Source: Psammoneis japonica
Lineage: Eukaryota
Assembly: GCA_008632985.1 (NCBI GenBank)
Contig: QPGO01000032.1
Location: forward strand, 555,330 to 619,329
Length of the DNA: 64,000 bases
Direction: 5' to 3'
Of this stretch, positions 11,400-49,150 are shown in pieces. The notes beneath the pieces are model-generated. The model saw only the letters and a program-made list of their open reading frames with translations. It searched no databases and was not told the DNA's origin. Each line of letters begins with the position of its first letter. The stretch's first letter is position 1. The translations under genes and the position numbers were made by a program.

Positions 11400-14300
11400 C
11401 GAACTTGGGGTGTGTTTGTAAGACAACATAGAATGCACACATGATGGTTGCGACCATGTGCGATGTGTGGCTTAACGACTGTAGACATGTCTACAGCCGG
11501 TCAAACGCCAATTGTCGGCATTTCCTGGAAAGTTGTGGCTTGTCTACCGTGACAGTCCAATTTTGGCGGAAAATGGCGGTTTGTCGCATGTGACAACCGA
11601 GGCAAATATGACAATTGGCATTTGAAGGTTAACATGTGTGCGGCAGTTCCCATGAAGGTCTGACAGCCCTGATGGGGGCTGCACACACTCACATGTGTTT
11701 GGGAGTGCTCAGAGGCTTCGCAAAATGACACGGGCGAAGTACGGGGAAATTCGAAAATCACGAGCTATTTAAAAAAATAGTGCCAAACATCGATCCAGCC
11801 TTAAATGTTCAAGAACATTATGACAGATTCAGTCATTGTCAGTCACAATGACAAAAAACAGCGTCATTCACGGGTCGCAGTTTTTCCCGCTCGGTTTGGC
11901 GGTGCTTCGCCTGCTGCACAGTGCGTGCCTCTCAATCTCGCAAGGGATTTTAGAATGCATGATAAATGTTCAAGAACATTGCGTGTTGACACAGTCATTC
12001 AAAGTCACAATGACACAAAACGTGGTGTCGTTTGTGGGTCGCGGTTTTTTCCCCACTCTGCCTGCCAGCAGCAGTCTCACACAACACACGAAAAACCAGC
12101 TCACCACCATCATCAGCAGTGGCAGCAGTGCAGCACATTGCCCCAACTGTCGCCACTGTTGCTGGTGTTCCCAGGTTTTGCACTGCCACTGTGTGGCGTT
12201 GTCTGCACATGGCCACAAAAAGCTGGCACAGTGATCTGCTGGATGTGCTCCAGCCGTGCATGAACACGCATGCCAAAAACATGAGATTGCTTTGTTGAGT
12301 GAAAAACAATGTGCCAAGTCATCTGCAAATGTTTGGACATGCCAACAAGACACACCGAAGTGCACCAAAACAAGCAGCTGCTTTTCATTTTCCACCGCAC
12401 TCTTGTTGTGCCAACTGCATCACAAAACAAAGGCAAACCTGCTGTTCATTGCAGGCCTGTGATGCAACAATCAGACAGCTTTTTTGTGCTTTGGTGCACA
12501 ATGAGTGTGTTTTCAAACTGTGGCAGCAATGAAAGTTCTCATGTTGCATGACATGTGCAAACAACTCCATGTGGGTGAAATTCTGCATGGACTGACACAT
12601 GTGCTTTTTGCACAAGTTGCTGTGGCAGCATGCGGTCCTTTGCAATGGCTTGTTTTGACTTTGGCTGCAAAAACAGTGCTGGTTGATGACTGGTTGATGA
12701 CACGGAGGAGCAGATGATGCAACATGCGCTGCGCAGAAAATGTTGAGTTGCAGCACATTTTTTGCTGAGACTTGGACCTGTTGCATTCAAAGGATTTTGT
12801 GCAGGTGTTGATGCCCACCTGAAAGTTGACACACAAGGTCACCAAAACAGATCTGTGCAGCACGACAGAAACCACCACACAAAAGCCAGTTTTTAGATGC
12901 TGTGGATTCAAAGGGTGGGGCAAAATGGCCCAAGGAAAGGGTGAAAAACTTGTGCGCTTGAAAGTCAATGAAATGAACACAAGTCCCAAGCTGCTGGGCC
13001 AAAAACAAGAAAAATTGCACACAGAGACTGAGCAAAATGTGGTGGTCCTGATGGAGGCATTTTTGTTGCCAAAAGGTGGAAAGCAGACAATGCAGCCCTC
13101 TGTGTGGTCATGTTGTTCATTGCAACAATGTGCGCCACTTTGGGAGCTTGCTTCTCATTGAGAAAACAGCTCCCATGGAGCATGGGCAAGGTGCTCAATT
13201 TGTTTGATGCCAGAGTTAAAATGAACAGCTGTGCAGGCCAGATCTAGCTCCAGGTGAAAGAAGTCCATCTGCAGCATGCGCTGTTGTGTGCATTTTTTGG
13301 TGTGTGTGTGTCCCCCCACTAAAATGTTGTTGCACATTGAATCATGCGTCAATCATGGGTTCGTGCAAAGGACAGATCAATCACAAAGAGTTGATTGGAT
13401 GTCGAAAATTGCAAATCCAATTGCTTGATGATGTTGACATCTTGTGTGTCAATGGCAATTGCATCCAGACAATCTGTTGTCATGATCACATTGTCTGAAA
13501 GGCCTTTTGCATCATGCAGGAGCAGCACAGAAGCTCCAAGTCTTTGAGAGCTTGTTCGGAGAAACCCAAAATGATTGTGCAAAATCCAGTCTTGCAATTC
13601 TCACTTTTTGCACATTGCTCTGCTTTTGTTTGCACTTGTTCTTCCAGCACAGCACACATTGCGCATGACTTCCCACACAGATTTCAGTGCCAGGAATTTT
13701 TTGATCACCTGCAAGCCAGAGCACATGGTGGTGCAATCATCATCTCTGTCACAGTGGCTGAACAAAAGCGTGCTTTTCATGCCCACGGCTGTGCACCAAG
13801 AATGTGACTCAATCTCAAAAAGAAAAAATGTCAGGTCACTCAAAGCCTTTTTTGTGATGCCCAAAAGCAGTGCTGGCTTCCATGCCCACTGCAGGAGTGC
13901 ACACAATGCAGCACACCACTGTGTTTGCACTGTTGCAAAGCTCTTCATTTTGCAACTGCTTTGCAAACAATGTCATTTGCCGCTGTGTTTCAATGCACAT
14001 GATGTTGCCAATGTGCTTCTATGAAGAACAGTCATCATTGCCTGCTTGTTGTCATGCAATTTTTACAACACAAGTGACGAGCAATCCTTTGAGTGTCATT
14101 TTTCTTGGTTTCAACTGTCATTTTTTTTGCACTGTCTGCTCCCACCAGTTGGCTTTGGCTTTGCTGCCAGGCATGCTGAGTGGTCCAAACTGCTCTTTTG
14201 CCACTTCACATCTGTCCCAGGCTGTCATTGGTCTTCTGCAGCAGTTCTGCTGGTTCCATGAGGGCTGCTGCAAGCAGAAGCTGGAGCCATGCTTGTTGTC

Positions 14301-17300
14301 AGCATTGGAGATCAGGGTGCACTTTCCCACATTGTTTGTTGTCCTTGGGCATCCAATGGGGTCATCCAACCACAACACAAAATGACAAAGGTTTGTGGGT
14401 TTTGTCCATCTCTTGCAGCTTGTTGCTTCTTGCTGGGGTTTTTGACTCACTGCTCCACTTGAGAGCAGCCCAAAGCACTGCCAGCTGTGGGTGCTGAGAT
14501 GACGCGCCAACACACCTCAGTGGACTGGACAGGAAGCTCAGCACTCAACCATTGATGGGACAGCACAGCACGGCAGCTTCTGAGCTGCAGTCTAGAACAA
14601 GTCTCAAGCCAAGCCCCAAGTCAAGCTCAAGTCCAAGTTTCTGTTTTGAAGTCCAACTTCATTTGCACATCATGGCATGTTTGCACTTTGAAGAACTGCT
14701 GCTTTTCTGTCATGTGCTTGGGCAAAAACCATCAAAAGATTGTTTCACTGCTCACACTCAGTGTGCAGCACTGGCTGATTGGAGCTGCCAGACAACCCAC
14801 ACCACACTGCTCATCCATGTGTTGTCTTTGGTTGCTGACTTGGTCTGTTCTCTGGAGTGCAGTCATTGCACAGCACAAGCAAAAATCAGTGCACTTGCTG
14901 TGTTGTTGGTTGTGTCGCAGCTGCCTGTGGTTTGCAGCTGCACATTTGGCAATTGGCGCTGGCTGGCTGGAGCTGCCAGAGAAACTGCCACTGCTCATCC
15001 ATGCACTGTCTTCAGCTGCTGTTTTGGTCTGTTCTCCAGGGTGCAGTCCTCATGATGCAGCACAGGCGCTCAACTGACAAAACAGACAAAAACTGATGCA
15101 CTTGCCAAAGCTGCAGGCAGCACCACAGTCAAAGTGGGCCCTTCCATGATGGAGCCCACCACTCCAGCAGGGAATGTGCTTGTCATCAGCAAGCAAATTT
15201 CCAAGCAAGCGCAAGTGTTTTTAGAGCCAGCGAGTGCTTGTTGTTCAAGTCAAAGCCCACCCCTTGGCTTTTGATGCCATGTTTGGTTGACTGTCCCCCT
15301 CTTCATCATCACCCTGGTCAGGTGCAAGCTTGCTGCCATGGCTCTTTGGGTGCAACCCTGCCATTGCATCTGCTCCAGGGTCTGTTCACACTCTGCCCAA
15401 TTGCCTCTCCAGCGTGTGTGTTTGGCAATGTTCGAATGCTTTGTTTCCTTCCATGCACACCACACCAGCCACATGTGTCACCACTTGTGCTGCTTCCTCC
15501 ACCCCTCTCACTTGCCCTTCTTGTGTTGACTGACTCTTTGCACATTTTGTGGCTTTTCACAGTGTGGCATTTCCTGTCCCCACCCAGAGAGTGTGTTGTC
15601 ATGGTCTGTGTGCTTCTGTGCCAAGCTCCAATGCACCAGCACAACAAAATCCCACCAAGTCAGGGAAAATGTGCTGTCAATGGGGGAGTCATTCAAAAAG
15701 GTCTCAACTGCTGTGGTCAATTTTTAACAATGCCTTTGATTGGACAACATTTCAGCTGATTTTCCAAGAAGTTGACTTTCAAGCATGGATGCAGGACAAA
15801 CAGATGGACAGCTGGTGTTGGCACTGGTCTGCACAATTTTTGTGTGATGTCTCTCAGGGCCAAAAGAATGACTCCCATTGTTCAAGCACCAAAAGATCTG
15901 CTGAGAAACCCTTGGGCAGTCATCAGCACACCAACAGACCAAGAAGCAGACAAGAAAGCACTGCGGCATGACCTGCAACCTCAAGATGATGAAGTTTTCA
16001 TTTTTTTTGGATTGACAGTCTTGCCACCTGTCTCAAAATGATGCCATCCAGTGGCAACCCTGAAGCCATTGTTTTTGTGCAGAATCCTGCAGAACACCAC
16101 ATGAGCAAAATGGCTTTTGCAATTTTTTTCATGCAGAAAAGCCATGTTGTGGTTCCTTGTGCTCAGTGCTGGGTGGCCTTGACCAAGACATGCTGGCTGC
16201 ACTGCTGCTCTGCTGATGCTGCTGCCAGATGACTCACATTGTCAACAATTGCAGCTCATCTTGGGTTGTTTGATTTCTCATCATGTGTTGACTGTGTTTC
16301 TGCTTGCATCAAAATCAAACTCCCCTCAGCTTGCCTTGCACACTCTGCACTTGTTCTCACTCCTCATGGAGCCACACAAAAATGACACACGCGTGCTTCT
16401 CAAGAAGTGATCTCCATGTGACTCCAGCAGTTTTGCACGGCAACCATGTTGTTTGTAACTTGACAAAGAACAAGACCTTCATGGGGGACATTTGGCAACC
16501 TGGGGGATCTTTTCATTTGCTGTGTCACTCAAAAAGGTTTGTGCTGCTGGCTTGCGCAGCAGTCGTTGTGCTGCAAGTGCATCACTCAGAACAAGGAGGG
16601 CTCTGGCAACAACTCAGCCACAGCTTTCTTGCACCAGCCAACTCAAATGTGGAGAGGGCTTGAAGGCTGCAGGAAGGTTCAGGGTTGTTTTAGGGGGGAT
16701 TTTCAGCAAACTGGGGAGCACCCAGGGGAGGGAACAAGGGCCAATCCATTGACAGAAGCAGCTCACAACCCATCACATCTCCAAACAAAACACACACACC
16801 CCTGAACCCCCCCCTGAAACCCCAAGTGTTTGATCACCAGCTGCAAGGTGAGGCAACAAACATGATGGCAACAACAGCAAACCCTGGAGAGATGAGCAGG
16901 GAAAAGATGCCAGTGCAACAGCAAATGATGGGCTTGGGGACCAGCACTGTCCCAGCAAAGACATCTCATGCTTTGGCAAGTGGCTTGCTGCAATGCTGTG
17001 ATGTTGTGCACATGGTGGCAAAGGGGCAGCTGTTTGGAAGACAAGTGGAAGCAAGAGAGCCTTGCCCAATGATGAAATGGAGAGCTGGAGGGCAGTGGGT
17101 GGAGGCAGCTGTTGTTTTTGCAAGATGGCGGCAAGCCCTCACTCTCTCTTGTGTCTTTTTTATTTTTTACATTCTTGCATTGCTTGTTTTCTCATGCACT
17201 GTGTGTTTTGACCCCCCTGTCACCACAACAAGGCTAAAATGCTGAGTGCAAATGCCCAGCTGTTGTTGGATGCTTGCAGTGTTTCTTCTTCAAGGATCAC

Positions 17301-24960: not shown

Positions 24961-27189
24961 TCTGCACAAGCCCACGATCCGTGGTATTGACGTCACTCAA
25001 ATAAGCTCCAATAGCGACATGTCGCAGTGCTTTTTTGAGAGTTAGAGTTTCGTAGGAGAAAACGTTGGGGTGTTATTTGTCTGGGTATTGACTCTAGGCC
25101 AGCGACTCGAAGAACAAGCAGCATAAATACAATCAGTCTTGAAAGTAGTGTGTCCGGAACAATTATGTCGTGGTTGAGAACCCCGAGACCCGAGACTCCA
25201 CAAATGCTAAATCGACACCATGGTTGTGTCATAAGTTGCATCCTTGTGTAATACTATTGGGTTATTGACAATGTGAATCACAAGACATGAGCAACAACGG
25301 AATAATGCCAAAGGCTCAATAAGCTAGAGTACTTACCTTCTCCACATATCTCACCTCAGGAGCATGTAGACCGGAGTCCCACAACAGGTATATGTCTTAT
25401 GCAAACGTTTCCTTCGAGAGACCACTAAGAGTGCCGTAGACGATTCGCCAGTGAGCAGCGAATGCCGATAGAACGGTGCGGCGAATCGGTGACAGACAGG
25501 AAGAAGGCTCTTATTGTATTGTACCGTGAACTTGGAATGTTTGACTCGTGCAGCCTTCCGCGAGTGTTTTTGACGGCTACCGTGAAATGTGATTACAGCC
25601 TCGTCTGCCTCATATTGTCTACACTTTGCGTCTTTCTCTGATAATCATTGCTCAAAAAGGCGATTGTGTGTACCGCATGGCATGGCGAACGGTAGGTTGT
25701 GCGTCATGTTCATGTTTCATGTGATGATATTGCGTTGATGGCTGTTGATGGCGGCAGTTTTTTGCGTTTTGGAGGCCTACGCAACGCGTACGTAGGAATT
25801 AGTAATCACTTCGAACGTACCAACTTCCAACGACTGTTCTACATACGAAAATCTTGGTATTGACTCTGATAGAGTACACAAAAATGATAGTGATTGAGAA
25901 ATTTAGCAACGGTCACGACACACAAACAAAATCTCTCACTTTTTTCTTTCGCGCTCGTTTTTGACACAACTGCGTCGTCTCGCACGATGCTGTTGTTGTT
26001 CGCCAAGCCCGAAGCCGTGATCGTCGAGGACTTGTTTGGCATTCCACAACCAATTTTGCTTGATGGCGTGTTGTCTCAATCGGCGGCGCAGGTGTTGCCA
26101 GTTAAGTCCGGAGGTCGGAGCAAATCGAGTGCGTGTCTCCGCCATGTCACTCCTGTCTCCTGTCCGTCAGCTGTCCCGATTTTATCAACCAGTAAAGTCC
26201 CATCGACTGACCCTTCCACTCAGCCAGCTGATGCGACGACGAACCCTTTGACAGAGCCCTCGGCATTTCCCACTGCAATGCCAAGTGCAGCACACAGTGA
26301 CGTGCCATCAAAAGCACCATCAGCAGAGCCGAGCGACATTTGGAAGCACTTCGTGCTGCGACGATGAACGTGAACGATGCATCGTAAGATGCACAAGAAA
26401 AGAAAAAAAGATCAAACCAAAGATGCACTTCGATGGGATGCACCATTGCCAGGAGCCACTGGACCGATCCATTTCTTTTCTTGTCATTTTGCGACATCTG
26501 TTCTCGCAAGTTGTTTTCCGGCTGCACTTTTCCCACTCCATCCCCGTCACCCGTTGGCATGTTTCAAGTTCTCTGAAACACGCTTTGAACCTTTACAACA
26601 GAAGTAGAAAGACTAAAAGTGCCACACAGCAATCTTCATTCGCGTGTGAGTCATTCCGCACGCAGGTCAATGGACTGCGATGGCGGTCGCAGCGCTTGCG
26701 ATGTCGTTCCAAGCTTTTGTGCATCATTTCCGTTTTTGCACCACATTGCTCTCGTCCCTTCAGATGGGGTCCACGCTGGGGTGTTTGTTGTGGCATGCCC
26801 CAATTTGGGCTTGTCGTCCATGCCGCATGTGCTGGACTGTTTCGGCGTTTGTCACCTGCAGTGGTTTTCTCACAGATTCGTCGCATTCACTTGTTGTTTG
26901 TGAGTTGCAACAGAAGAATGAAAATTCTAAAGCACAGGTTTGTGGCTAGAATGCTCTCTGCCAGCAGAGAGAAACAAAAGTTTCGAAATTCGTGACTCCA
27001 CTTGTCTGACTGTGCCAAGCTCCGTTTGTCCTCTCTCTGAGGTGAAGAATCACATGGCTGGACACAATGTTGAATGCCTTCTTCAGCTGAACAAGTCCCC
27101 AACCGAAATTCTCGAGCTTGTCTTTGAAGCTGGCCTTGAGCGCATCGATTGATGCACGCATCCCAGGGTTGAGTGGAGGCTGTGAGACG

Positions 27190-27465
27190 TGACAGAAATT
27201 GAAGGCAAATGGCAAGAATTCAAACAACAACTCCTTGCTGCTGTCTAAATGGCAGATGAGTCTCCGCTCAGAGACCGTTGCAGGAGCCGAAAGACGTGTA
27301 AGTCGGCACAATTGGGCCACTGTTGTTGTTCTTGTGAGCCTTGTGGCTCGAAAGCAAACTGCGTCGCACGTGAACGCGCGGAGCTAAAGCACACAAAACT
27401 GTGCGCGGCAAACTAAACAGCGCGCGACATTTCGCGTGCACCCAAATCCTGTTCAAATCCTGTCA
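27190..27465 (-). repeat. 3' LTR (276 bp)
   Basis: tgacagaaattgaagg...caaatcctgtca, preceded by TSD agacg. Confidence 0.96.
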
Positions 27466-27560
27466 CTCCCCAGTTTGCTTGAGGAGCCACAGAAACAGAT
27501 TCAACTTCGGATGGAATGAAGTTCCAGAACATGAGGGGGCAGAGAAGGTCCCAGATTTGG

Positions 27561-28125
27561 GAAAGTCGCAGCCCAGATGGAACTCAATGGGTCCGGCACC
27601 CTTGAGCTTGAACTTGTGCTTTTCCGTGAGAGCATCGACGAAAGATTGAGGGTCCTTCATGGCAATGGCGAGGTCATCCACATAAACAGCAATGCATTCA
27701 CAGTGGTCGCCATTCCTGCGCATCCAAATGTCGGGTTCGGCGCGGCAGGGGAAGAAGCCTTCAGCTCGCAGGCAGTCGGCGAAGCGCTCGTGCCAGCGGA
27801 GACCGGAGCTGCGCAGTCCATGCAGGGCCTTGTGGATGACGAGGATGTGTCCTTCGAGTTTGCCAAATTCAGGTCCGGCCACAATGTAGAGCTTCTCCTT
27901 GGTGGTGGCTTCAAGGCAGGCATTGCCAATGTCGGTGGCCCATGTCTCCAACTCGTTGAGTTCGGCCAGGAAAATCATCAGCCGAAGGCCACGGAGGGAG
28001 ACTGCTCCGGAGTGGACACTGTCGATGGGTGCGTCCGTGAGGTGCCCATCGGCTACGAGTCGTGCCTTGTGGCAACCGTCGTGCTTCACGTCGTGCACCA
28101 GGTGCACTCGGATCTTCTTGTGTCC
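27561..28125 (-). repeat. Duplicated RT segment (copy of ~29342-29906)
   Basis: Second copy of KKIRV..KARLVADG..YVDD..FHLGCDF. Confidence 0.93.
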
Positions 28126-28126
28126 C

Positions 28127-28345
28127 TGACAGCAGATGAGTCTCCGCTCAGAGACCGTTGCAGGAGCCGAAAGACGTGCAAGTCGGTGCAATCGGGCTGC
28201 TGTTGTCATTCTTGTGAGCCTTGTGGCTCGAAAGCAAACTGCATCGCGCGCGAACGCGCGGAACTGAAGCACACAAAACTGTGCGCTGTGAACTGAACAG
28301 CGCGCGACATTTCGCGCGCACCCAAATCCTGTTCAAATCCTGTCA
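28127..28345 (-). repeat. Internal third LTR with a ~57-bp deletion
   Basis: tgaca|gcagatgagtctcc...tcctgtca, adjacent to the PPT. Confidence 0.93.
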
Positions 28346-28349
28346 CTCC

Positions 28350-30347
28350 CCAGTTTGCTTGAGGAGCCACAGAAATAGATTCGACTTCGGATGGAATGAA
28401 GTTCCAGAACATGAGGGGGCGGAGAAGGTCCCAGGTTTGGGAGCAACCCCAATGCTTGCTGAGAATGTCAGCAGGGTTGCGGGAGCCTTCGATGAAGTGG
28501 AGCTCAAGGTGACCAGAGGCAATTGCCTCACGCACACGGTGGAACGACAGTGCGGTGTGTCGCTTGTGTAACTTGGAGTGCGGGATGGTGGCACTGTCTA
28601 CAACCGACTTGTTGTCACCGAACATGCAACTGACATTGCGGATCGGGACGCCAAGGCAGTGCAGGGTGATGCGCAGGTCGATGATCTGCTCGACACAAGT
28701 CCTTGCGGCAACAAATTCAGACCCGTGGGTTGCAGTCTCCATGGTGGCTTGCTTCTTGGAGAACCAATCAGCCGGGAATTTGTTGAGGAAGTGGAGCATT
28801 CCCATGACAGAGCGTCCGGTGAGCATGCAATGGCACAAGTTTGCATCGACGCAGTGGGTGGCAGTGACGAACTTGCCAAGGGGCGGTGGAGCGTCCTTTG
28901 GGATCATCTCTTCTGCTTCGCCGCACACGGAATGCATCCATTCACAGGCCGGAGCAGGGAGATCCGAGTGGTCGGGCTCTTCCGTGTGAACACGGAGAGC
29001 GCCGTGTCGCATCTTGGAGAGGTGCCCACAGACGTGTTTGGCATGATCCAAGTGGCCTTGACGGGGCGCAGCTTGGAAGCTAGAGAGTGACATGACGGCC
29101 ATGGCAATGTCAACTCGACCAAGGGACACTGCCCATTGGAGTGAACCAACAAGAGACTGGAACTTGTGAATGCCATTGGGCCCCAGCAGTTTGGAAGTGT
29201 CCAGCTCGGGGTGGTCACCCTTCTCCAGAGGTGACAGGGCGTTGGTGGTGGGTTTCTCCCCAAACAGTCAGGTGCAGCTGTCGACCATGCGCTCGATGCA
29301 CTTGCACGGAGACAGGCACAAGGTGCCGTCAGGATCCCGGGAAAAGTCGCAGCCCAGATGGAACTCAATGGGTCCGGTGCCCTTGAGCTTGAACTTGTGC
29401 TTTTCCGTGAGAGTGTCGACAAAAGATTGAGGGTCCTTCACAGCAATGGCGAGGTCATCCACATAAATGGCAATGTGTTCACCGTGGTTGCCGTTCCTGC
29501 GCATCCAAATGTTGGGTTTGGCGCGGCAGGGGAAGAAGCCTTCAGCTCGCAGGCAGTCGGTGAAGTGTTTGTGCCAGCGGAGACTGGAGCTGCGCAGTCC
29601 ATGCAGGGCCTTGTGGATGACAAGGATGTGTCCTTCGAGTTTGCCAAATTCGGGTCTGGCCACAATGTAGAGCTTCTCCTTGGTGGTGGCTTCAAGGCAG
29701 GCATTGCCAATGTTGGTGGCCCATGTCTCCAACTCGTTGAGTTCGGCCAGGAAAATCATCAGCCGAAGGCCACGGAGGGAGACTGCTCCGGAGCAGACAC
29801 TGTCGATGGGTGCATCCGTGAGGTGCCCATCGGCTGCGAGTCGTGCCTTGTGGCGACCGTCGTGTTTCACATCGCACACCAGGTTCACTCGGATCTTCTT
29901 GTGTCCTGCAGGAGGAGTGGAAGACTCGAAGGGCCCGCAGTCATGGAAGACTTCGTATTCCTCGAGTTGGTCCATCTCGAGATTAGTTGCGTCTCCCCAT
30001 TTGCGGTTGCCGTTGTGTTCGTCTAGTGACATGGCGTGTTTGCAGTTCCGGGGAACTTCGTGTCCACACTTGCAGCGAGGTGCAGTGCGGAAGGAGCGAA
30101 GCTTGGCTTGGTTGGCCATGCGAAATGGCTTCTTCTGGTGCCTCGCGATGGTGCGGAACCGCTTCCAGCCATCAGTGTCGAGAAGTCCATTCTCTCGTGC
30201 ATAGATGGCGCAGGTGATGGGGTCGTCCTTGGCGATGATGGCAAGAGGCTCGGACGTGATCTCCCCACTTTCCCATTCAAGCATGATGTTGTAGCTTGAG
30301 CCTTTCCAGGTTGGGTCTTGAGGCTTCAGAGGTCCTTCGTGTGACAC
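28350..30347 (-). pseudogene. pol: Copia reverse transcriptase and RNase H (mutated)
   Basis: KARLAADG, KALHGLRSS, IYVDD, FSKKQAT.ETATHGSEFVAA, GDNKSV and NPADILSK. Confidence 0.95.
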
Positions 30348-30353
30348 GATGCG

Positions 30354-31802
30354 TCAAAATTTCCAAACAGCAGTGTCTTCGTCTTCTTGCTCAATGTGAT
30401 TCATGATGTCGTTGCAGGCAAGGACTTCCTTGTGTTCGTCGTTGTTGACAGAGCAGACAAACTTGGTGAGCTCGGGATTGCCGTTCACTTTCCATTCATG
30501 GTCTTCGACGGCCTTGACGATGCGAGCTCTGTGGCGTTGTCCGTCCTCTTGTGGCTGCATGAGGAAGGTGCGTCCGATGATGTCTTGCGGGTCGAAAACT
30601 GGCATCTTGGGTGTCCTGATCTCCCCATCAGGAGAATCGACGGGGTTGTCGTCATGGCGAGATTTGATGATGGGTTCAGGTGGCTCCCCATCAGGAGGAT
30701 CAAGACGCAGGTTTCGAACGGCAGGATCGGTGGCAGTGGATCGTACGTTGGACCGGTGGAGGATCTTCTGAGTCTCGTCAGAGAGAATCTTGAAGGTCAT
30801 CTGGTGGCCGACGTGCTCAGCAATGCCAACAAAGCATCCACGCAACTCACGGGATTCGGACAGCCAATCGGAGTCATCGAGGTGGAAGCACACGGGTTCC
30901 CACCAGTGAAAGCGAAGCAATGGGCTGATGTCCGGGGTGGAGCCAGTGAGAGTCTCGAGGGGCGTGCACCAGTGGAGACGTGGGGACGCTGTGTGGTTGA
31001 GCATGAAGCACACGTGCATGAGCGCCAGCAGCCATGTGTGGGCAGGCGAACCGAAACGATCCATGACAGTGTTCGCCATGCGCTTCACGGTCTGGTGTCG
31101 ACACTCGGCAAAGTTTTGGTGTTGCTGGTGAGGCTCACTTTGCCAGCTGGAGATGAAGAGGGCTCGTAGGATCCCGAGCACCTTGTTGCTGATCTCAACT
31201 TGAGCACGGTCGCCAATGAGTTTGGATGGGGCACCACGCTCACGGATCTGATCCTCGAGTGTGTTGACAAACTCTTTGTCCGTCTTGGTGCCGCAGACGT
31301 CAGTGACGGCAGACTCGGTGCCAACAAACAGTTGGGCGCTGGTGCAACCAGAGTCGATGGCCGGGGTGTCGGCATGAACGGTGTCAGTGGCGACAGGCTC
31401 GTTGCGGCGGTGCACATTAAGGGCGGGGTTGGGTGATTTGCAGGCCTTCCTAAGGTGTGTGCCAGCGGGCATGCGGGCGCACTGCGTGGTGCAGTCAAAA
31501 GTGCGACGGACCGCATCGGCAGGTGGGAAGCCAAAACAAGGCCGAAGAGACTCGAAGGGGGGGTCCTTGGGCTGCACAGTGCGCTCCGGGGGCGGAACGT
31601 TGTCGTCCTTAGGGTCAATCGCGTGTGGATGACACTCGTAGAACACGTCGTCGTTTGGAATGAGGTGATCATCGAGGGCGGACGCGTGATCGGCAGACAA
31701 GGAAGCGGACATGATGGTCTTGTTGACAACGACACGATGACGGCAGTTGCCGCATTCGTCAAATGGGTTGGCAGTGGGATCGTCCTGCAGGTCAGAGATC
31801 AC
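30354..31802 (-). pseudogene. pol: Copia integrase (mutated)
   Basis: VATDT..DRAQVEIS..SEPHQQHQNFAE DDE core and TPDISPLLRFHWWEPV. Ends at a TGA that probably derives from CGA. Confidence 0.92.
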
Positions 31803-33673
31803 GTCGCACCACTGGTCGCGACGACGGGACCACGCTGGGTCTCAATGATGGCGCCAGCAGTGACAACAGGGATGTCTGCCAATTGATGGTCGTCAATGCC
31901 CTGAACGTCGACTTGGTGAGAGGTGTGTGCAATGACGCAAACGTCGTCGCCAGCAATGCCGCCGTTGGCCCCACGATCGACCAGAGCACCAGCGCGTGTG
32001 GAGCGATGAGCAGAGGCAGAGCAAATGACATTGTGGCCACCAACGCGGCGGCAAGTGCGGCCGTTGAGTTCCATGTCATCGGCAGGAGCTGGCGGAGTAG
32101 AGGGAGCGGCGGATGGCCCCGGTCGACTGGCGTTGGGGGCTTGGTTAGGAGACAACAGACGTTGCAGATCACCGGGTGGCAGTGGCTTGCGCTTGGTGAG
32201 GTGCGCCAGGATGGGATTGTCCGAAGTGGCACCCACATTTGGAGCGGGGTCACCAGAGTCAGCAGGAGTCGTGTTGGACAAGTTGACATCACCATCACTC
32301 CCAAGGCGTTGGTCGTGAAGGTTGGCCGTAATGGACTCATGGCAGTTGCTGGCTCGCGGGTTGCGGGGAGGCGGACGAGAATGCTCAAGGATGATCGCCT
32401 TGGAGGAATGGGGCAACGAATCCCAAATCCGTTGGTGGTCGGGAGGGAGACGTTTCCATTGGTCACCGGCGAGGCTGGGACCACGGGTGCAGGCAGCATT
32501 GGCCTGAAGGGCGTCAATGTCGCTGTCAATGTCGCAGAACACATCGTCGGATGGTTCCTCGGAGCAGACGTCGTGTGCGTGTGTGGCACGTCGGGGAGCT
32601 CGAGGTGTCGTCTTGGGTTGAAACGTGCTGTCGCATTGAGCCGCCGCGGAGAGGAGCAAGCCACAGCATTGATCACATGTGAGGCTCTTGCCACTCTGCA
32701 TGCGATGCTGATCAGCTTGGTTCTTGACAGCACGGAGTTCCTCGACAGGGTGTGCGGCATTCTCGAGCATGACGCGCTTCTGTCCTTCAGAGAAGTGGTC
32801 ACTGGCCGGGATGAGTGCCTCGCACTTGTGCAACTGATCTTGCCAATGAAGGATGAACCCATGGGTCGGACCTTTCCAAGTGCCATCACCAAGACGTGCG
32901 GTGGCAAGGTGCGTGAGCAAGGTGGAGGACTCGACAGATGCGCAGGTGGAGGCGAGCGCACACTCAGACAAGGCGCGGCAGATGGTCTGGGCGTCAGAAG
33001 ACCCCACATTTTCGCGAATGAGAGCCTTGCCCTTGTCGGTGAGAAGGATGCATTCGAAGATGGCGAACACGTGCTTTTGCTGTTCAGCAAAGAGCAGTTT
33101 GTCTTCGGGGCTGGTCGGTTTGTACGATGAGTCTAGAGTGCACTCGACGTCTTGGGCATGGGCTTGTGCCACAAGTGAGGTGTGCCAAGTGTGCCACTGC
33201 TTGTCAGATTTGAGAGCCGTGAAAGCAGTGGGGTCACGCTTGATGCCTCGCTTGAAGTCTCGCACCGGGTCGCGTGCCTTGGTTGGGTTGGTGACATGCG
33301 GAGGTGCAAGGGGTGAGCTGCCGATGGACACAGAAGACATGCAGTCGGGGCTGAGGCGGCAGGCAAGGAACTCGTCATGCGTGAACAACGAGGAGTCATT
33401 GGCAACGTCAAGACCTTCGTGTGCTTTGACAATGCACAGACCAGTTGGAGCTGCCAACATGTTCTTATGACCGCGGGGCAAAGGGATCACATTAGTGCCG
33501 TTGTCGCACTCAAGCGAGTCGATTTGGGACGGTGTTAACGTGAACAGTTCTTGACACGAGTCCGTGCCGTCTTGGGTCAAAGCCAAACGAAGAGGGCTCC
33601 CAGCACCTTGGGCAAGCACGGTTCCAACAACGTGCTCGAAACCATCGGTTTGTTGCTGACGAGTGAGAACCAT
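31799..33673 (-). pseudogene. gag: Copia gag and aspartic protease (mutated)
   Basis: DFKRGIKRDP and LVDRGANGG (protease). Frameshift or deletion near 31805. Confidence 0.88.
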
Positions 33674-34612
33674 GGCAGACAAAAGTGGTGTCAGGACAAG
33701 CAATTCTTGTTGGGAAGCGAAGGCAGACTTGAAACTTGGGTGAGAATGGACTTGACTTGAAATGGACTTGACTTGAAATCTTGAACTACCTTGAAATCAG
33801 AAGTCGCCGGGCTGTGCCATCCCGTTCGTTGTCAAGTGCTAAACTTCCCATCCGGTCCGCAGAGTTGTGCCGGCACGTCCGAACCCGCAGCCAGCGGCGC
33901 TTTGGGTTGCTTGCGAGCGGAGCAGCGGGTTGCAAACCCCTGCAGGCAAGCTGACCAGAGGTGGACAAGACCCCCGAACCATTCTTGTTTTACATCGGTT
34001 GGATTTCCCGATCAGGCTGGCCAGTTGACGCAGGCGTCAGGCGCTGTGGACGAACGAACAAACGCGGGAAAACACCCTCGCCCCAATGCAGGCTGCAATC
34101 ACGGCTGCTTGCTCTCACAGTCGTCCTCGTGGATCTAGCAGAACTGCAGAGCACCAGCAGTCTGGGGTAGATCAGGCACAACAGACTCGGCGTGCTTGCA
34201 GAGTGGCAGCAAAGCCGCAGTCCAAAGAGTGGGTTCAAGTCCTTGGCCGTGAAGATGTGTGTGTGTGTGCATGTCTTCAGCGACGAAGATCCTTGAATGT
34301 GTGGGGTTCTTGACCGTCAACCATTGAATGGGTGTGTCAAGGGATGAGGATCAAGGATGGACTTGGACATGACCGTTGAATGCATGTCTTCAGCGACAAA
34401 AGGCAGTGTGATCAATCCAGACATCCAGCGGCAAGGAGACTTGACGGTGACGTTAACTTCCTGCCGATGCCCTGGCATTGAATGCGTGCAGACTTGCCGA
34501 TGTGCGTAGAACACACACGGAGGTCCACGCAGAATTGAAATGCTGTCGTCGGTAAATCAATGACGACGATGGCGGTTGCTCAATGGGTTGACAATGAGCA
34601 AGACTGTCAATC

Positions 34613-34888
34613 TGACAGAAATTGAAGGCAAATGGCAAGAATTCAAACAATGGCTCCTTGCTGCTGTCCAAATGGCAGATGAGTCTCCGCTCAGAGACCA
34701 TTGCAGGAGCCGAAAGACGTGCAAGTCGGCACAATCGGGCTGCTGTCATCATTCTTGTGAGCCTTGTGGCTCGAAAGCAAACTGCACAGCGCGCGAACGC
34801 GCGGAACTAAAGCACACAAAACTGTGCGCGGTGAACTAAACAGCACGCGACATTTCGCGCGCACCTGAATCCTGTTCAAATCCTGTCA
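34613..34888 (-). repeat. 5' LTR (276 bp)
   Basis: Matches 27190-27465 and is followed by TSD agacg. Confidence 0.96.
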
Positions 34889-36819
34889 AGACGAATCGAA
34901 TGTACGACCGCATTGGATGTTGGGATTTCTTCATTGACAACTACAATGGCCACGGACAATCCCTTGCGAGCGGTCTCTTGCTCCTTTCCGTTGCTCTTAA
35001 TGGAGGTCACTTTCCAACGTGCAGCCCTCCCAAATCTGGGGTGCACAATGCAGTGCCGACTTTGAGAACAGCTTCCGTAGCTTCACACCAAAAATGATTG
35101 GATGCTCGATCCACGAACGTGCCAGCTTCTTTCCAAAACTGCAGTTCAACATGCATGCCCCATTTCCTCTAAGAATGCTGCGTTCGGCCAGCTGTCATTG
35201 CTGCGAAATCCGTCCACCAGCGTGCAACGTTTCGCCTCCTCAAGTGAGCAGTCTCCATTCACCATCCTTTTCGCGACATTCACATGGATTGGACCAATGA
35301 TCTTGTCGTCAAGCGGGTCTGCAATGGCAGCGACTTGGCACCACGTTTTGAGGACTTGTGAATCTTGAGGAAATGTGTCTCCACTCCATCCGCGCTCGCT
35401 TCCTTCATTTTGTGCAATCTTTCCGCAAGTGTGTGCACAAAAGCGGAACGCTCTCTGAGATCCTCCCACAAAAGCCACTGTGCACCCCACTCTGCTCCGC
35501 CCTCGGCCACGAGACCATGCGGCGAAAATGCATTCACGACCGAGAATTCCACCCATCCTCGCTTTTTCACGAGTTCCGTCTCCACTTGACTAAACATGAA
35601 GTGATGTCCGGGCATGCCTCGTGTGTGGGAAGCTGCAAAAACTTGTCAATGGAGAGCAATCGAGCCAGGTTCGCCTGCGTTTCACTGGCACATCGCGTGT
35701 GAACCCTTCAAAGGCCTCCCACAAAACATTCTTGTCATCTGGTCACTTCATGGTCAGCTTTTGACACATCTTGAGGTCATTCTTCTCACATTTTTCCTTG
35801 CAATGATCCAAGGCAAATTCGAAAAGTTTGTGACAACAAGCTTTTTTTTGGAGCCAGAAAGAATTTCCGCATTGCCTCGAACCATGCACTCAGTGACTTG
35901 GGACCACATTGGAGAACCTGCGGGGAACAGTCTTTCCTCGAGAATTTTGAGTTTGCTGTCCACTTGTTGGCTGGCCGTCCTTGCAGAATTCATGAATGCT
36001 TGGTTTGATGTCGTGGAATTTCTCGCATTGGCAGTCAAACCAGATCTGTTGGCTTTTGCCGCTGGCACTGCAAAGTTTGTCAATCCTGGTGGCCAGCGTG
36101 CCCTGACCTCGGCCCGCATCCAAGAGGGCGCGGCATGCGGCATTGCTGTCCCCTTCGCCTCGACCAGAGAGCTTCTTCGAGTCAAAGTTCCAAGTCTCGC
36201 ACCAAGGCAAGGAGGTTGTCACAGGTCCATTTTTTCTTCTTTCCATCGTTGCTCTCATTGATTGATTGGACGTGCTGCTTGATCATCTCTTGCCGCTCAA
36301 GAGGACCAAAGTGCACGTCCAGCGAATCCTCGTCAAAGATTGACAGCACAAGCGAGCAGGCGGAAAATTCTTGTGCCAATCGGTCAATCGGGCTGTTTGT
36401 TGTTGTTTCTTGGCTGCCTGCTCCTGGCGGTGTTGCCTTTGCATGCGGAGCGAGTTTCGCCAGAAGTGCTCTCCAGCAAGGGATCTTGTTTCTTCTCGCA
36501 CCATCCATTCAAACAACTCTGTTTCAAGTCTTCAAAGCAACGATGGAACAAAATGAAGCAATAAAGAGCACTCTAGCTTACAGATTGTGGAGAAGTAAGT
36601 GAATGTTGAATGTGATCATCAGATCATCAGTTCAGTCAGTTCGATTTATTGTTGTTTGTTGGACTGGAGGGTCCGTCCCTCCATCAGGAGGTTCGCGCAT
36701 GCTGCTTTCACTATCGCGCGCAAAATGCGCGAGCGACGAGAGAGGAGAAATGGGGGGGGGAGAAAGAGACGGGCCATTTGTCACATTTTCTGCTGTTGAC
36801 AACAATCGATCATCGATCA

Positions 36820-42759: not shown

Positions 42760-44180
42760 CAAAAACATGTTGTGTTGAATCACCTCGCTTCCTCCTCACA
42801 GTCAAGGCGCGTGCGTGCAGCACTGTTGGCCCAAGCACAATGAGAATCACATCATTTGGGCACACATGTGTAGTGCGGGATTTTGGGATGTGCTGGACTC
42901 CCTCCGACCTCACCGCGGGGTTTCCACGAGGAAATCAAAAGAATTGGGCGTCAACAATGGTGAATTGAGCTTGTTTTTTTTTTTTTTTGCTCTTAACCTT
43001 CATTGTTTCTGGAGACCATTGCAGTCACAAAAACTCTGTCTCATCCTGACTTGCAAGCTGCTGCAATCTTGTCCAATCACAGAGACACCCACGCACACTC
43101 TGGGAGGGTTGATCTTGTGTGCCATGGTGCACTGACACCCACTGACCATCAGCAGGGTGGACAGTGCAAAATCAAGGCAGGAGTTGTTGCAAGTCACCGA
43201 GAGCATGACAGCTGTTCTTTTCCATGCAGGCCAGCACAAAAATTTGCTGCAAATGTTGAGAACAGCTTTCCAGGTTCTGCGTGGAGACAAGCATCCAAAA
43301 AAATCTGCAAAAACAGTGCTCAATGTGGTGGTGCCAAATGCAGCGATGGGGGCACTGCATCTGGCCAGAAATTGGCTGATCAAGCAAAGATCAAATCTTC
43401 TTAGGGGCAAAAAAACAAAAACTAAAACAAAAAAAGCCAGTGGTCAGTGAGGGCAAGTGGCAATCACCAAAAGAAAGAGATGATGGCAAGCCAACACGAG
43501 GTCCCTTGCCATTGGAAAAAGAAGCAGAGTGTGGCCACTCACAAAAAACAAAAAAAAGCCAAGCACCATGCTCTCAAAGCCCACCCATTAGCAAAGCAAA
43601 AGCAGCTGCTCTGTGGCTGCAAGTGTGAGTTTGGCACTGCTCAGCAGCTCAAGCTCCAACGAGCACGGCATTGGGCAACTGGAAGGACAAAAAATTGCCA
43701 AAAAAGTTGAGAAAGAGTGAGCAGCAACAGTGCACAGTTGGCAACAGAGGGGCAAGCAGATTTTGGATCCCACAGCCATGCTCAACCCCTGCAGCATTTG
43801 GTCTGATCTGGGCCTGGTGGGACACCACCTCTCAGCTGGCCCGGCTGGAGAAAGCTGGTGGCCTTTTTGTTTCTCACAACAAACAGCTCAGTGCCACATC
43901 AGCCCACAACATGCAAGTGGGCTCTGGGCAGCAAAAATCTCTTCTTTGGCTGCAGCAAGCAAGCATTTGACCTGCCGCCATTTGCAACAGACTTGCGACC
44001 CATGCAAAGGGGAGAGGACGAGGCTCTGGCCATCGACAGGCCTGGCTTTGGTTGGAGAGGTGCTGGTGTGTTGTGCACACATTCGAAGAGCAGCGCAGTC
44101 AGTGCACATCAATGAGAAGTGGCCACAAATGAGAACCAACGCACAAACGAGAACTTTGGGAGATGAGCGAATGCTCGCAA
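42760..44180. repeat. TpA/CpG-erased relic domain C
   Basis: Near absence of TA and CG between two normal genes. Confidence 0.7.
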
Positions 44181-46755: not shown

Positions 46756-48649
46756 TGAAGGCCTCAAGACTGAGGAGCATGGCACGCTGCTCAGTTGGAG
46801 CTCCCCTGCAGTGCAGCCAGCTGAAGAGCTTCAAGCAGGGCAGGCAAGGACACAAGATCAAGGAGAGTGCACTGTGTCAGGGCAATGAGAGTGCTGTCTT
46901 GCTGGCAAAGAACTCAGAAGCTGAACATCCAGTGCCAAATGAGCAAAAAGCACGCAGGAGCCATGCGACACTTGTTTGTGGCTGACAACAAAGAAAAGAC
47001 AATCTGACAGCCAGATGGTGCCCAGCCAAGATCATGCTTGCTGCCTGCTTTGCCAAGCTGCCACAAGAATTTGGTGCCATTCATCAAACTTTGAAGCCAG
47101 GTCATCATGAACATGGACAACAATCCCCCAGTTGATGACCTGAGCCACAGCAGAATTGTGCTGGAGAGCACAAAGAGCATGCTCACCTTTGAGCCACAAA
47201 AGAAGCAATGAAGAAGGTGGCAGGCCCAGCTGCAAATCTGCAATCAAGGAATTTAGCAAGTGATGCACTGAAGGCAAAGCAACCTTTTTTGGAGCTCCAG
47301 TTGGCTGGGGAAATGAAAACAAGAGGAGCGGTGCAGCAGCAAGGGTGTGCTCTTGACACAATGCAAAAAGACAAGGTGGTCAAAGAAAAGATGCAATTTG
47401 GCTCACTTTTCCAGTGCCTGTCAGAGTGTGTTGACTCTGCACCCAAAAGCTCAAGCACTTGCAGCCCAGAGCACACCCGTGCAGGGCCAGCACAGCCAAC
47501 AACTCAGCTGACACTAAGATGGGACCCAAAGCAGAGCACGGTGCTGGGGAGTGCTGCTGCGCTGCCTTGCTGCTTTGTGACAGTGACAACATGCAACTGC
47601 AACACAAGAAGACCCACTCTGCTGAGCCACAAATGAAAATCAGCCCTCTGGACATGGGCAAGCTGTCACTCACTCCGCCATCAAACCATGGAGGGTCAGT
47701 GGTGTGCTGCAATGCACAGCACAGCTTCAATCTAACTTTGTGTCTGCAAGCCACTCTGCTGTTGTTGTGAAGCTGGAGGGCACACAAAAATGGAAAAGAT
47801 GAGCTTCTTTCCATCAATGGCATCAGGTGCACAAATGGGTCAAATGGTGCCATTGTGACAGCATGCACAAAATGAACCCTTCTTGTGAGTTGGTTGACAT
47901 GCCATGCATGTGGAGCATTGGCACATGATTGTGGCAACATGCTGTGACATCTCTGCAGCATGGCAGCATTTTGGTCATTCTTGCAGTGTGGTGTGTTCTT
48001 TGTGCTGACTCTTGAAGTGCAAGTGCTGTGAAGGTGCGCACACTCCAAACATGCAGGCAAAAAACACCAGATGCCCTGGTGCTGCACACAAAGAAAAGAA
48101 AACAATGCACACTCTCCTTGTGAACAACTGCTGCTTGCTTGAGAATGTGCCTCTTTTGTTTTGGTGTCTGTGTCAAAGAAAGAGTCAGCAAATCTCTGCT
48201 CTGTGAATGGCAGATGAAGATCATGTCTTTGAAGTTTGAGGGAAACACGGCGCCTTTGTCATTTTCAGCTCCAAGCTTTGTCTGGGCAACAAGGCTGGAG
48301 CTGTGGACAGTGATGGGGTGGGAGAGTTGAGAGGAGCACCCTTCAAGCAAGATGCAAAGTGAGCAGAGACAGGGACACTTGTTTCATGCTGGTGGTTTCA
48401 TCTGTGGTGATCATGCCAGTGCTTTGTTCTGTCACAGCCCACATGATTTGACCACTTTCTCAGTGGCGCACAGCTGAGCAACAGATGAAGAGGTCAATTT
48501 GATGTGGGGGAGACATCTCATGCTGGTCATGTGTGGCCAAATCATGCTCTTTCTTGCACATCAGCAAAAAGAAAAAGTTGTGCACTCTCATGGAGAGAGC
48601 TCAGACTTGAGATGCCTCAAGCTTGGTGGCAGAAAATCCTGCTGAAGAT

Positions 48650-49150
48650 GAAAGCTGTGACATGCCAGCAACAAGAGTGGCAACAGCTTTGTTTTGCACT
48701 GTGCTTGTCTTGCTTGACATGTGTGACCCCCTTCTGTTGGGCTGCAATGCTCCTTTGCCAACTTTGCATCTGTTGGCAAGGACGATGGTGCAGTCTGGAG
48801 GTGAAAGAAGAAGGCCACAGCTTTTCTCTGTTCTCAGCACAGCCCACACACCCCAACAAAACAGCAAAGCTGTGCAGGGGCTTGTGCTGACCCCCACAAA
48901 CTTGTGTTTGGCTTTTCTCAGCTTTGCTTTCAGGCTTTTCTAGATTCTCAATGAGCCCAGCAATGGTGCTGATCTCAGTGTGCTGACAGCACTTGAGTTG
49001 GTGCACCTTGGAGGGTTTAGCAGCATGCTTGTGACTCTCAGCCACAGCCAGCTTTTTGCTGAGTCTGGCTGATGTGTGCTGAATGTGACAGTGTGGTGAA
49101 GGACCTTTTGTGAGATGATCACTTTTTGAGCATGCAGAGCATCTTGTTCA
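48650..49150 (+). repeat. Decayed dispersed repeat homologous to ~59945-60440
   Basis: Shared blocks tctctgttctcagcacagcc, aaaacagcaaagctgtgcag, ttctagattctcaatgagcccagcaa and cacttgagttggtgcaccttg. Confidence 0.85.

Follow-up and report, generated by a model that had tools for sequence, protein, structure and literature searches.

Nearly all TpA dinucleotides have been lost from a Ty1/copia long terminal repeat (LTR) retrotransposon in the genome of the diatom Psammoneis japonica and from a sharply bounded stretch of DNA around it, and the duplicated copies within the element differ from one another at reciprocal CA and TG sites. The element is one insertion, occupying positions 27190–34888 on the minus strand of the window, by which is meant the whole stretch of 64,000 nt of contig QPGO01000032.1 that was analysed; all positions below are those of the window. 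An earlier note on this DNA, made from the sequence alone, had taken the reciprocal sites to mean that each copy was mutated independently in chromosomal DNA after insertion. The observation is confirmed by alignment, and the interpretation is probably correct once CpG decay is added to it as a further process. That a process targeted at TpA has acted at the DNA level is highly probable. The leading guess at its chemistry, adenine deamination by a DNA adenine deaminase, has about an even chance of being right.

The element is assigned to Ty1/copia on the basis of the RVT_2 (Pfam) matches of both of its reverse transcriptase (RT) copies (E = 1.9e-22 and 1.1e-23, the latter for RT1), the TG...CA ends of its LTRs, a 5 bp target duplication and a full-length homologue, P0004, that aligns colinearly by tblastn, gag first and then pol. 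P0001, the pol frame translated with X in place of each in-frame TGA codon, has 1400 database relatives, the best of which are ~63–70 % identical and ~1900 aa long. A Pfam search of the mutated pol open reading frame (ORF) returned no integrase match. The tblastn matches of six copia homologues to the window are confined to the copia element. Its parts are as follows.

27185..27189, no strand: target-site duplication AGACG, left copy; the same 5 bases recur at 34889–34893
27190..27465, minus strand: LTR_A, the 3′ LTR, 276 bp, TGACAG...CTGTCA (LTR alignment, self-BLAST)
27466–27562: pre-LTR internal tail, 97 bp, joined directly to RT1
27559..28125, minus strand: RT1, the duplicated RT segment, 567 bases (self-BLAST, 93.7 % to 29340–29906; RVT_2)
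28132..28345, minus strand: LTR_B, an internal LTR copy with 62 bases missing at its 3′ end in sense orientation (self-BLAST, 92.9 % to LTR_A over 27252–27562)
28206..31841, minus strand: pol frame of 1212 codons with integrase region, RT and RNase H region (translation, RVT_2, homologues 63–70 % identical, tblastn)
29340..29906, minus strand: RT2, the RT segment in the normal pol position (self-BLAST against RT1)
31799..33796, minus strand: gag/protease-side ORF, 665 aa, with one Tyr only; residues 1–628 of P0004 align there
34613..34888, minus strand: LTR_C, the 5′ LTR (alignment, self-BLAST, termini identical to those of LTR_A)
34889..34893, no strand: target-site duplication AGACG, right copy, matching the left copy

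LTR_A and LTR_C have the same termini, TGACAG...CTGTCA, and the same flanking AGACG, and are thus the two LTRs of a single insertion. Read in the sense direction, the internal order is pol, the 97-base tail, the truncated LTR_B, RT1, the 97-base tail again and LTR_A; the element is internally rearranged and carries a third, truncated LTR as well as an additional RT segment. All stops in the pol frame are in-frame TGA codons (496, 858 and 1212), with zero TAA or TAG. The gag-side ORF and pol lie in different frames and overlap by 43 bases (31799–31841), for which a programmed frameshift and an indel are both possible.

The three LTR copies and two RT copies described in the earlier note are present in the region, and all of the LTR and RT examples that it quoted were recovered by alignment. 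Between LTR_A and LTR_C, gtcTAaat is replaced by gtcCAaat and gcCActgtTGtTGtt by gcTGctgtCAtCAtt. The gtgTAag of LTR_A reads gtgCAag in LTR_B and LTR_C, acTAaac in LTR_A and LTR_C reads acTGaac in LTR_B, and accCAaat in LTR_A and LTR_B reads accTGaat in LTR_C. Within the RT duplicate, the same relationship is seen at the codons of VHDVK/VCDVK and VHSG/VCSG (CAC/TGC in both cases) and of RLVAD/RLAAD (GTA/GCA).

Differences between the copies are almost exclusively transitions. RT1 and RT2 differ at 36 of 566 aligned bases (34 transitions), LTR_A and LTR_B at 22 of 309 (21 transitions, 4 reciprocal CA/TG sites), LTR_A and LTR_C at 25 of 276 (24 transitions, 6 reciprocal CA/TG and 2 CA/TA sites), and LTR_B and LTR_C at 13 of 214 (11 transitions, 3 reciprocal CA/TG sites). 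Pyrimidine–purine (YpR) dinucleotides make up 48.5 % of positions and hold 33 of the 36 RT differences (binomial p = 4.5e-8); purine changes outside YpR number only 2–3 in the pairwise comparisons. Adjacent double differences of the CA/TG type occur seven times between RT1 and RT2, against 2.3 expected under independence. Sorted by dinucleotide, the RT sites are CG/TG (9), CA/CG (7), CA/TG (7), TA/TG (1) and other (5), and 27 CpGs are common to both RT copies. The description of the differences as sets of TA, CA and TG needs correction in one respect: 8 of the 24 RT YpR sites are purely CA/TG or TA, while CG is involved at the remaining 16. Those CG-containing RT differences that can be polarised represent CpG decay, so two processes are superimposed, and CpG decay appears to be the second, ordinary process that explains these differences.

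The two LTRs of an LTR retrotransposon are identical when it integrates. LTR_A and LTR_C share one target duplication yet differ from each other as described above, so the changes were made after integration. Together with the TA-poor flanks described below, this bears out independent mutation of each copy; the mutation is heritable and in chromosomal DNA.

The direction of change was established from amino-acid conservation in homologues, which served as outgroup; this applies to coding sites only. Tyr makes up 0.5 % of pol, compared with a mean of 3.78 % in 72 homologues, while Cys (3.56 versus 0.93 %) and His (5.54 versus 3.55 %) are raised and Arg is unchanged (6.29 versus 5.84 %). In an alignment of 45 homologues, the 31 columns in which Tyr is at least 80 % conserved carry 5 Tyr, 14 Cys, 8 His and 4 other residues in the element; the 47 conserved Arg columns carry 40 Arg, 5 His, 1 Cys and 1 Gln. 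The same is found across gag-pol with 30 homologues, where 39 conserved Tyr sites have become 18 Cys (17 TGC and 1 TGT), 10 His (8 CAC and 2 CAT), 6 Tyr and 5 other, with no Arg and no codon having reached CGY, and where 57 conserved Arg sites are now 46 Arg, 7 His, 2 Cys, 1 Gln and 1 Thr. TAY has thus given way to TGY or CAY at ~70 % of Tyr codons, and CGN has decayed at ~18 % of Arg codons.

At the reciprocal CA/TG sites of the RT duplicate, the ancestral dinucleotide, judged from the 45 homologues, was TA at five of seven. These are at residues 683 and 789 (Tyr in 45/45), 656 (Phe in 32, Tyr in 13), and at the codon junctions 800|801 (first base of Met) and 821|822 (first base of Thr). The site at 791|792 (Val in 44/45) is derived from CG and the polarity of 809|810 is ambiguous. 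The GTA to GCA change at Val669 is polarised by Val in 45/45 homologues. Polarisable one-sided CG differences, at Arg663, Arg759, Asp710, Gly729, Gly753, Glu775 and Asp777, represent CpG decay and lie mostly in RT2. An ancestral TA, as had been proposed, is accordingly borne out at most of the reciprocal sites and by the 28 of 39 Tyr sites that are now Cys or His with none Arg, with Val792 as a CG-derived exception; an ancestral CG, which the earlier note gave as the finding that would overturn its reading, is contradicted by homologue conservation at most sites.

The TpA dinucleotides that survive reveal a sequence preference. Among the 98 TAs remaining in TA-poor blocks, 5 are in the context RTAY, 41 in mixed contexts (RTAR and YTAY) and 52 in YTAR, compared with 397, 627 and 212, respectively, of 1236 TAs in normal window DNA (chi2 = 82.6, p = 1e-18). 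In the same order, survivors in the copia element number 3/21/18, against 6283/9219/3093 in 79 related loci (p = 2e-6), and the pattern is repeated in the flanks (1/7/7) and in the old blocks (1/13/26). The 16 contexts are fitted by a model that lets the A of each strand be lost independently, with a probability that depends on its 3′ neighbour, and gives per-strand survival of A of 0.07–0.09 in TAT, 0.18–0.20 in TAC, 0.52–0.55 in TAG and 0.52–0.63 in TAA. The A:T pair in 5′-TAY-3′/5′-RTA-3′ is lost about four times faster than that in TAR, and the strands are hit independently.

Both strands have been mutated. The 18 Cys and 10 His outcomes at conserved Tyr codons represent the two directions and do not differ significantly from equality (binomial p = 0.18), in agreement with the strand symmetry expected of double-stranded DNA mutation in the earlier note. 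Transcription-strand asymmetry was considered and rejected: a Cys excess of 30 versus 12 obtained with P0004 alone drops to 18 versus 10 at strictly conserved sites. The mild excess that remains is explained by the TAY motif, which is always on the sense strand of a Tyr codon, and transcription is not needed. Where the codon follows a purine, so that the motif is present on both strands, the outcomes are 7 Cys and 7 His; where it follows a pyrimidine and the motif is on the sense strand only, they are 11 Cys and 3 His, although these numbers are small. Between the RT copies, the same derived state is seen at 4–5 Tyr sites and reciprocal states at three, which is about equal, as independent hits predict, again in small numbers.

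Controls for composition and for Tyr replacement were provided by 80 related loci, the best 80 of 386 confirmed, taken from metagenome contigs and 48–66 % identical in amino acids; they were used for these two purposes only, their LTRs being too distant to align. The observed/expected ratio (o/e) of TpA is 0.12 in the element and 0.31–1.07 in the related loci, none of which falls below 0.3; in the element TpG and CpA stand at 1.38 and 1.52. At 66 Tyr positions of P0004 the element has 7 Tyr, 12 His, 30 Cys and 17 other residues, giving a fraction of Tyr converted to His or Cys of 0.64, compared with a median of 0.036 and a maximum of 0.38 (locus L063) in the related loci. Judged by these comparisons, the TA loss belongs to this copy and not to the family. 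The 7.7 kb of the element contain 42 TAs in all, where relatives have 48.6 per kb; the element has lost ~89 % of its TpA but ~15–23 % of its CpG, which makes the TpA process roughly ten times faster.

Two observations on the related loci stand apart. Locus L063 (22–2759) is partly affected, with TpA o/e of 0.31 and His or Cys at 15 of 39 Tyr positions against the 3.6 % median, and the same process may act in the environmental organism that carries it. Seven whole loci (L054, L039, L005, L020, L044, L069 and L072) have CpG o/e of 0.10–0.24 with TpA o/e of 0.43–0.64; CpG decay without the TpA process is common in this copia family in other hosts. An exact 24-base word from the LTR matched 0 stretches of the metagenome contigs.

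The TA-poor domain extends beyond the element on both sides:

25905..36561, no strand: TA-poor domain with sharp edges, made up of the copia element with 1.29 kb of flank on its left and 1.67 kb on its right (TA positions, 1-kb windows)

At the left edge, TA occurs every ~20 bp through 25904 and then only nine times as far as 27189. On the right side there are six TAs in 34889–35591 and none in 35592–36561, with normal density beyond. Within the domain TpA o/e is 0.02–0.19, versus ~0.5 outside, and CpG o/e is 0.65–1.0. The flanks, at CpG o/e of ~0.8–0.9, resemble the young element and not the old blocks described next. GC content is 56 % in the element against 48–49 % in the rest of the window on either side. 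With the flanks as query, a sensitive blastn search gave no match elsewhere in the window and none in the 80 loci. In a Pfam scan of 17 ORFs and 66 ORFs (of at least 100 aa), those of the flanks and old blocks had no match at gathering score; three Pfam matches listed in the scan, with E of ~0.007–0.008, are below gathering score.

In 1-kb bins the window falls into two states, host-gene DNA and TA-poor blocks. Host-gene DNA has TpA o/e of ~0.5 and CpG o/e of ~1.0 and includes genes for an ABC1 kinase, an FG-GAP protein, a peroxidase, a WD40 protein, a PEMT-type methyltransferase and a ZZ-finger protein. Among named organisms, the closest relatives of the ABC1-kinase ORF are diatom proteins, led by those of Fragilaria crotonensis (72 %), Attheya (69 %) and Seminavis robusta (66 %) and continuing with Mayamaea, Chaetoceros and Nitzschia, whereas chlorarachniophytes reach 49 %. 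The protein atlas gives the same picture, and the presence of long ORFs free of introns is likewise in keeping with a diatom. TpA depletion is localised to the copia domain and four further blocks, host-gene DNA being normal. The four blocks are listed here with their o/e values.

11700..17300, no strand: older block with TpA and CpG nearly gone (TpA 0.01–0.13, CpG 0.07–0.30, TpG and CpA 1.7–2.2)
43000..43600, no strand: short TA-poor, CpG-poor block (TpA 0.05, CpG 0.16)
46900..53200, no strand: older TA-poor, CpG-poor repeat block (TpA 0.00–0.09, CpG 0.04–0.29), with repeats in common with 58.1–60.5 kb
59900..61000, no strand: TA-poor, CpG-poor repeat block (dinucleotide o/e, self-BLAST)

Overall, the four blocks have TpA of 0.00–0.13, CpG of 0.04–0.3 and TpG/CpA of 1.6–2.2. 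Degenerate repeats are common to the blocks at 46.9–53.2 and 59.9–61.0 kb, and in each of two pairs of repeats reciprocal CA/TG accounts for almost all YpR differences (18/22 in the pair 48552/59843 and 15/17 in the other). Such blocks are the end state to be expected once TA and CG have both been driven to CA and TG. A separate compositional feature of the old blocks (12001–17000 and 47001–53000) is a GpC o/e of 1.26–1.53 in 2-kb windows, compared with ~1.0–1.2 elsewhere.

As the stop codons TAA and TAG require TA, the TA-poor blocks (11700–17300, 25905–36561 and 46900–53200) contain long open frames in all six frames. Six TA-poor stretches, comprising the four blocks, the copia domain and a stretch at 9.4–10.6 kb with an HYR-domain ORF, cover ~40 % of the window and are overlapped by 89 of the 160 stop-to-stop ORFs of at least 110 aa. 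Automatic gene prediction would report false genes in such blocks.

The closest known counterpart is in the chlorarachniophyte Bigelowiella natans. According to a preprint on mutation accumulation in 15 Illumina-sequenced lines, integrated nucleocytoplasmic large DNA virus (NCLDV) and virophage DNA received 231 of the 302 nuclear point mutations; A>G and T>C made up 230 of these 231 de novo mutations, and every one of the 230 lay on TpA (Mettrop et al., bioRxiv 10.64898/2026.01.13.699255). The rate is given there as ~6e-7 per site per generation in some lines only, ~1000-fold above background. The same source reports TpA-poor, CpA- and TpG-rich clusters in the B. natans genome, with TpA-poor coding sequences enriched for reverse transcriptase and DDE domains, and its authors propose a DNA adenine deaminase, with an ADAT2-like candidate, as a defence. 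The two systems are alike in the A:T>G:C change at TpA only, yielding TpG or CpA by strand, in its confinement to foreign or mobile DNA, probably in a rate far above background (in the present element TpA loss would have outrun CpG loss), in TpA-poor, CpA- and TpG-rich clusters and in the enrichment of TpA-poor coding sequences for reverse transcriptase. The direction A>G/T>C, the restriction to TpA, the localisation to mobile DNA and the chromosomal, heritable nature of the change, which characterise the B. natans process, are all found in the present window. The two systems differ in host, here a diatom and thus a stramenopile; in target, here an LTR retrotransposon and other repeats as opposed to NCLDV and virophage DNA; and in extent, which is near-saturating here (o/e 0.12 in the element and 0.00–0.1 in old blocks) compared with a Rho of 0.45 reported for the NCLDV region. 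The TAY preference and coexisting CpG decay are seen here, and the main text of the preprint makes no mention of diatoms, CpG or trinucleotide context. The present changes are deduced from fixed differences, whereas those in B. natans were observed de novo.

In fungal repeat-induced point mutation (RIP), C is changed to T, chiefly at CpA, and new TpA arises (PMC2621366). It resembles the process described here as a transition hypermutation at the DNA level that is dinucleotide-specific, inactivates repeated and mobile DNA, can spread to neighbouring sequence and leaves a signature in dinucleotide ratios. The direction is opposite, however: TpA is destroyed here and GC rises. RIP also acts on repeats, while in B. 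natans a single-copy region was reported to be hit. Fungal RIP was rejected as the process in this window, where TpA is depleted, not enriched, and the GC content of the element exceeds that of its surroundings. CpG decay gives the same products, TpG and CpA, on both strands and after insertion, and is itself present in this element and saturated in the older blocks, but it does not explain TpA loss or the conversion of Tyr to Cys and His, and in the young element it is ~ten times slower. The APOBEC3/AID and ADAR deaminases of animals likewise hypermutate retroelements and viruses in a short sequence context. APOBEC enzymes convert C to U in single-stranded cDNA before integration and leave strand-asymmetric G>A changes on the plus strand, in contrast to the symmetric, post-integration A:T>G:C changes seen here; ADAR acts on double-stranded RNA, while these changes are in DNA and follow integration. 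In their natural substrate, TadA and ADAT2 act on A34 after U33, which in bacterial tRNA-Arg is followed by C35, i.e. U-A-C. This context of TadA/ADAT2, and of the adenine base editors derived from them, resembles T-A-Y. No natural member of the TadA/ADAT2 family is known to hypermutate chromosomal domains. A report of this signature in diatoms was not found in the full-text literature, subscription journals not being covered; the B. natans preprint is the only source found to describe the signature.

The findings are best explained as follows. After integration, the element and 1.3–1.7 kb on each side underwent near-saturating, context-specific mutation, in which the A:T pair of TpA became G:C and TA became TG or CA depending on which of its A:T pairs was struck. 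TG and CA are no longer targets and hence do not progress to CG. Reciprocal CA-versus-TG sites follow from independent hits on each duplicated copy. In parallel, CpG decays to TpG and CpA at about one-tenth the rate, reaching saturation only in the older blocks. The process would be the one observed de novo in the B. natans lines, in which hypermutation is targeted at invading or mobile DNA, and it seems to be restricted to a silent domain defined by chromatin or RNA. The enzyme would work on the chromosomal DNA of silenced mobile elements, and adenine would be converted to hypoxanthine and read as G at the next replication. Adenine deamination is the simplest chemistry that would stop at TG and CA and act on each strand independently.

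This chemistry has one rival that makes the same prediction. A dioxygenase might oxidise T in 5′-RTA-3′ to 5-hydroxymethyl- or 5-formyluracil in silenced domains, and the product would mispair with G to give T>C. By symmetry, TAY being RTA on the other strand, the pattern would be identical. Moreover, 5-formyluracil does mispair with G, and dinoflagellates carry 5-hydroxymethyluracil preferentially at TpA. The preference of the B. natans authors for adenine deamination and their finding of an ADAT2-like candidate (bioRxiv 10.64898/2026.01.13.699255) point the other way, and we regard thymine oxidation as improbable. Far less probable still is editing before integration, whereby adenosines would be deaminated in the RNA of the element, in the cDNA strand of the RNA:DNA hybrids formed by reverse transcription, or in both, and the edited copies then integrated. 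The ADARs are a metazoan family, and LTR_A and LTR_C, which belong to one insertion, nevertheless differ at 6 reciprocal CA/TG and 2 CA/TA sites, which largely refutes the idea; both strands are hit, and the 1.3–1.7 kb flanks are equally TA-poor. For the same reasons, ADAR hyperediting fixed by retrotransposition was rejected. What such editing would account for is the preference for A>G with a 5′ U, which is of ADAR type (bioRxiv 10.64898/2026.01.13.699255), and the 4–5 same-state Tyr sites, against three reciprocal ones, leave room for part of the loss to have preceded the duplication.

Ordinary decay of methylated CpG alone, with every CA/TG site arising from CG through changes on opposite strands of the two copies, can draw on the fact that CG/TG and CA/CG form the largest RT class (16 of 24 YpR sites), on the 10 of 57 Arg sites now His, Cys or Gln, on the ancestral CG at Val792 and on CpG o/e of 0.04–0.3 in the old blocks. 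It is scarcely credible as the sole explanation, since 28 of 39 conserved Tyr codons have become TGY or CAY while 27 CpGs persist in both RT copies, and since ~23 % CpG loss per copy predicts about one reciprocal site against the seven seen. Nor can CpG decay remove TpA (o/e 0.12) or yield the YTAR bias of survivors, and relatives with CpG o/e of 0.1–0.3 keep normal TpA (0.57 in L054, for example). It was rejected in the sole role on account of the Tyr conversions and TpA loss, and stands as the slower second process. A sequencing or assembly artefact, such as a modified T or A at TpA being miscalled in long reads, is also very unlikely, if marginally less so. The available reads come from one sample (four runs, one study), the sequencing platform is not on record and the runs are probably the assembly's own source data. 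Contigs from run X1, which are short (mean ~214 bases, depth ~30), equal the TA-poor flank exactly over 175 bases (26575–26749) and 214 bases (35394–35607). On the element, 12,637 X1 contig pieces lie at 90 % identity or more, and their variant places comprise 90 A>G, 99 T>C, 107 C>T and 106 G>A, i.e. 402 transitions versus 49 transversions. Furthermore, the changes are codon-coherent, are fixed with a different outcome in each copy and end at sharp domain edges, and the B. natans signature was obtained with Illumina reads (bioRxiv 10.64898/2026.01.13.699255).

Several points weigh against independent, TpA-targeted mutation by a DNA adenine deaminase as set out above. The evidence is from a single genome window. 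The homologues used for polarity are only 55–70 % identical and give it at coding sites only, so that the ancestry of LTR sites is deduced and not directly shown. Part of the TA loss could predate the duplication, as there are 4–5 same-state Tyr sites, and LTR_B and RT1 could derive from a second element and not from duplication of the first. The flanks are either host DNA reached by spreading over 1.3–1.7 kb or a young, unrecognised element that served as the landing site. Since the runs are probably the assembly's own data, the artefact test is supportive, not independent. Lastly, an event at A in TAY is equally an event at T in RTA, for which reason adenine deamination and thymine modification would be expected to leave the same pattern.

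With respect to B. natans, the novelty of the present case is in the diatom lineage, the LTR retrotransposon and old repeats as targets, the near saturation, the sharper TAY motif and the sharp domain edges. The signature suggests that mobile DNA is countered by a defence based on DNA editing. The well-known forms of targeted hypermutation of mobile DNA are C>T changes (RIP, APOBEC), and for an A:T>G:C counterpart the literature searched contains one 2026 preprint only. The process is peculiar neither to one alga nor to integrated viruses, and is shown here acting alongside CpG decay inside sharply bounded domains. The TAY motif is a sharper constraint that any candidate enzyme must reproduce. 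We raise, tentatively and leaning slightly against it, the wider idea that diatoms and chlorarachniophytes, and possibly much of the SAR group (stramenopiles, alveolates and Rhizaria), share a RIP-like but chemically opposite defence. In it, a DNA adenine deaminase recognising TAY would act in sharply bounded silent domains and erase nearly all Tyr codons as well as TAA and TAG from transposons and integrated viruses in a short evolutionary time; with CpG decay, every YpR would end as CA or TG. Diatoms have genetic tools, and the enzyme could be sought in them by contrasting species that show the signature with species that do not; should it prove to be a natural DNA adenine deaminase, it would hold basic as well as practical interest. 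In genomes of this kind, LTR divergence is unusable for dating insertions.

The single-copy flanks show a further feature in the X1 contigs. At 26519–26702, 35394–35607, 35632–35798 and 35784–35996 there are two forms of ~30 depth each, one that matches the window fully or almost so and a second with 12–17 differences per ~200 bases. These may be very divergent diploid alleles or a paralogue; alleles would imply that mutation of the domain went on after they had diverged.

Outside the copia domain and the four blocks, an intact ORF of 531 aa at 9337–10929 on the minus strand, with HYR and lectin-like matches, is TA-poor over 9479–11075 (10 TAs in 1.6 kb). It contains tandem repeats (10053–10338 and 10314–10599) that are 74.6 % identical and differ by 34 transitions and 41 transversions. 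The scarcity of TA in the ORF may reflect the same process acting on a gene that carries repeats, or merely an unusual composition. Its residues include 1.3 % Tyr, 4.0 % His and 5.8 % Cys, compared with 1.4–3.7 % Tyr, 0.4–1.9 % His and 0.6–1.7 % Cys in four host ORFs.

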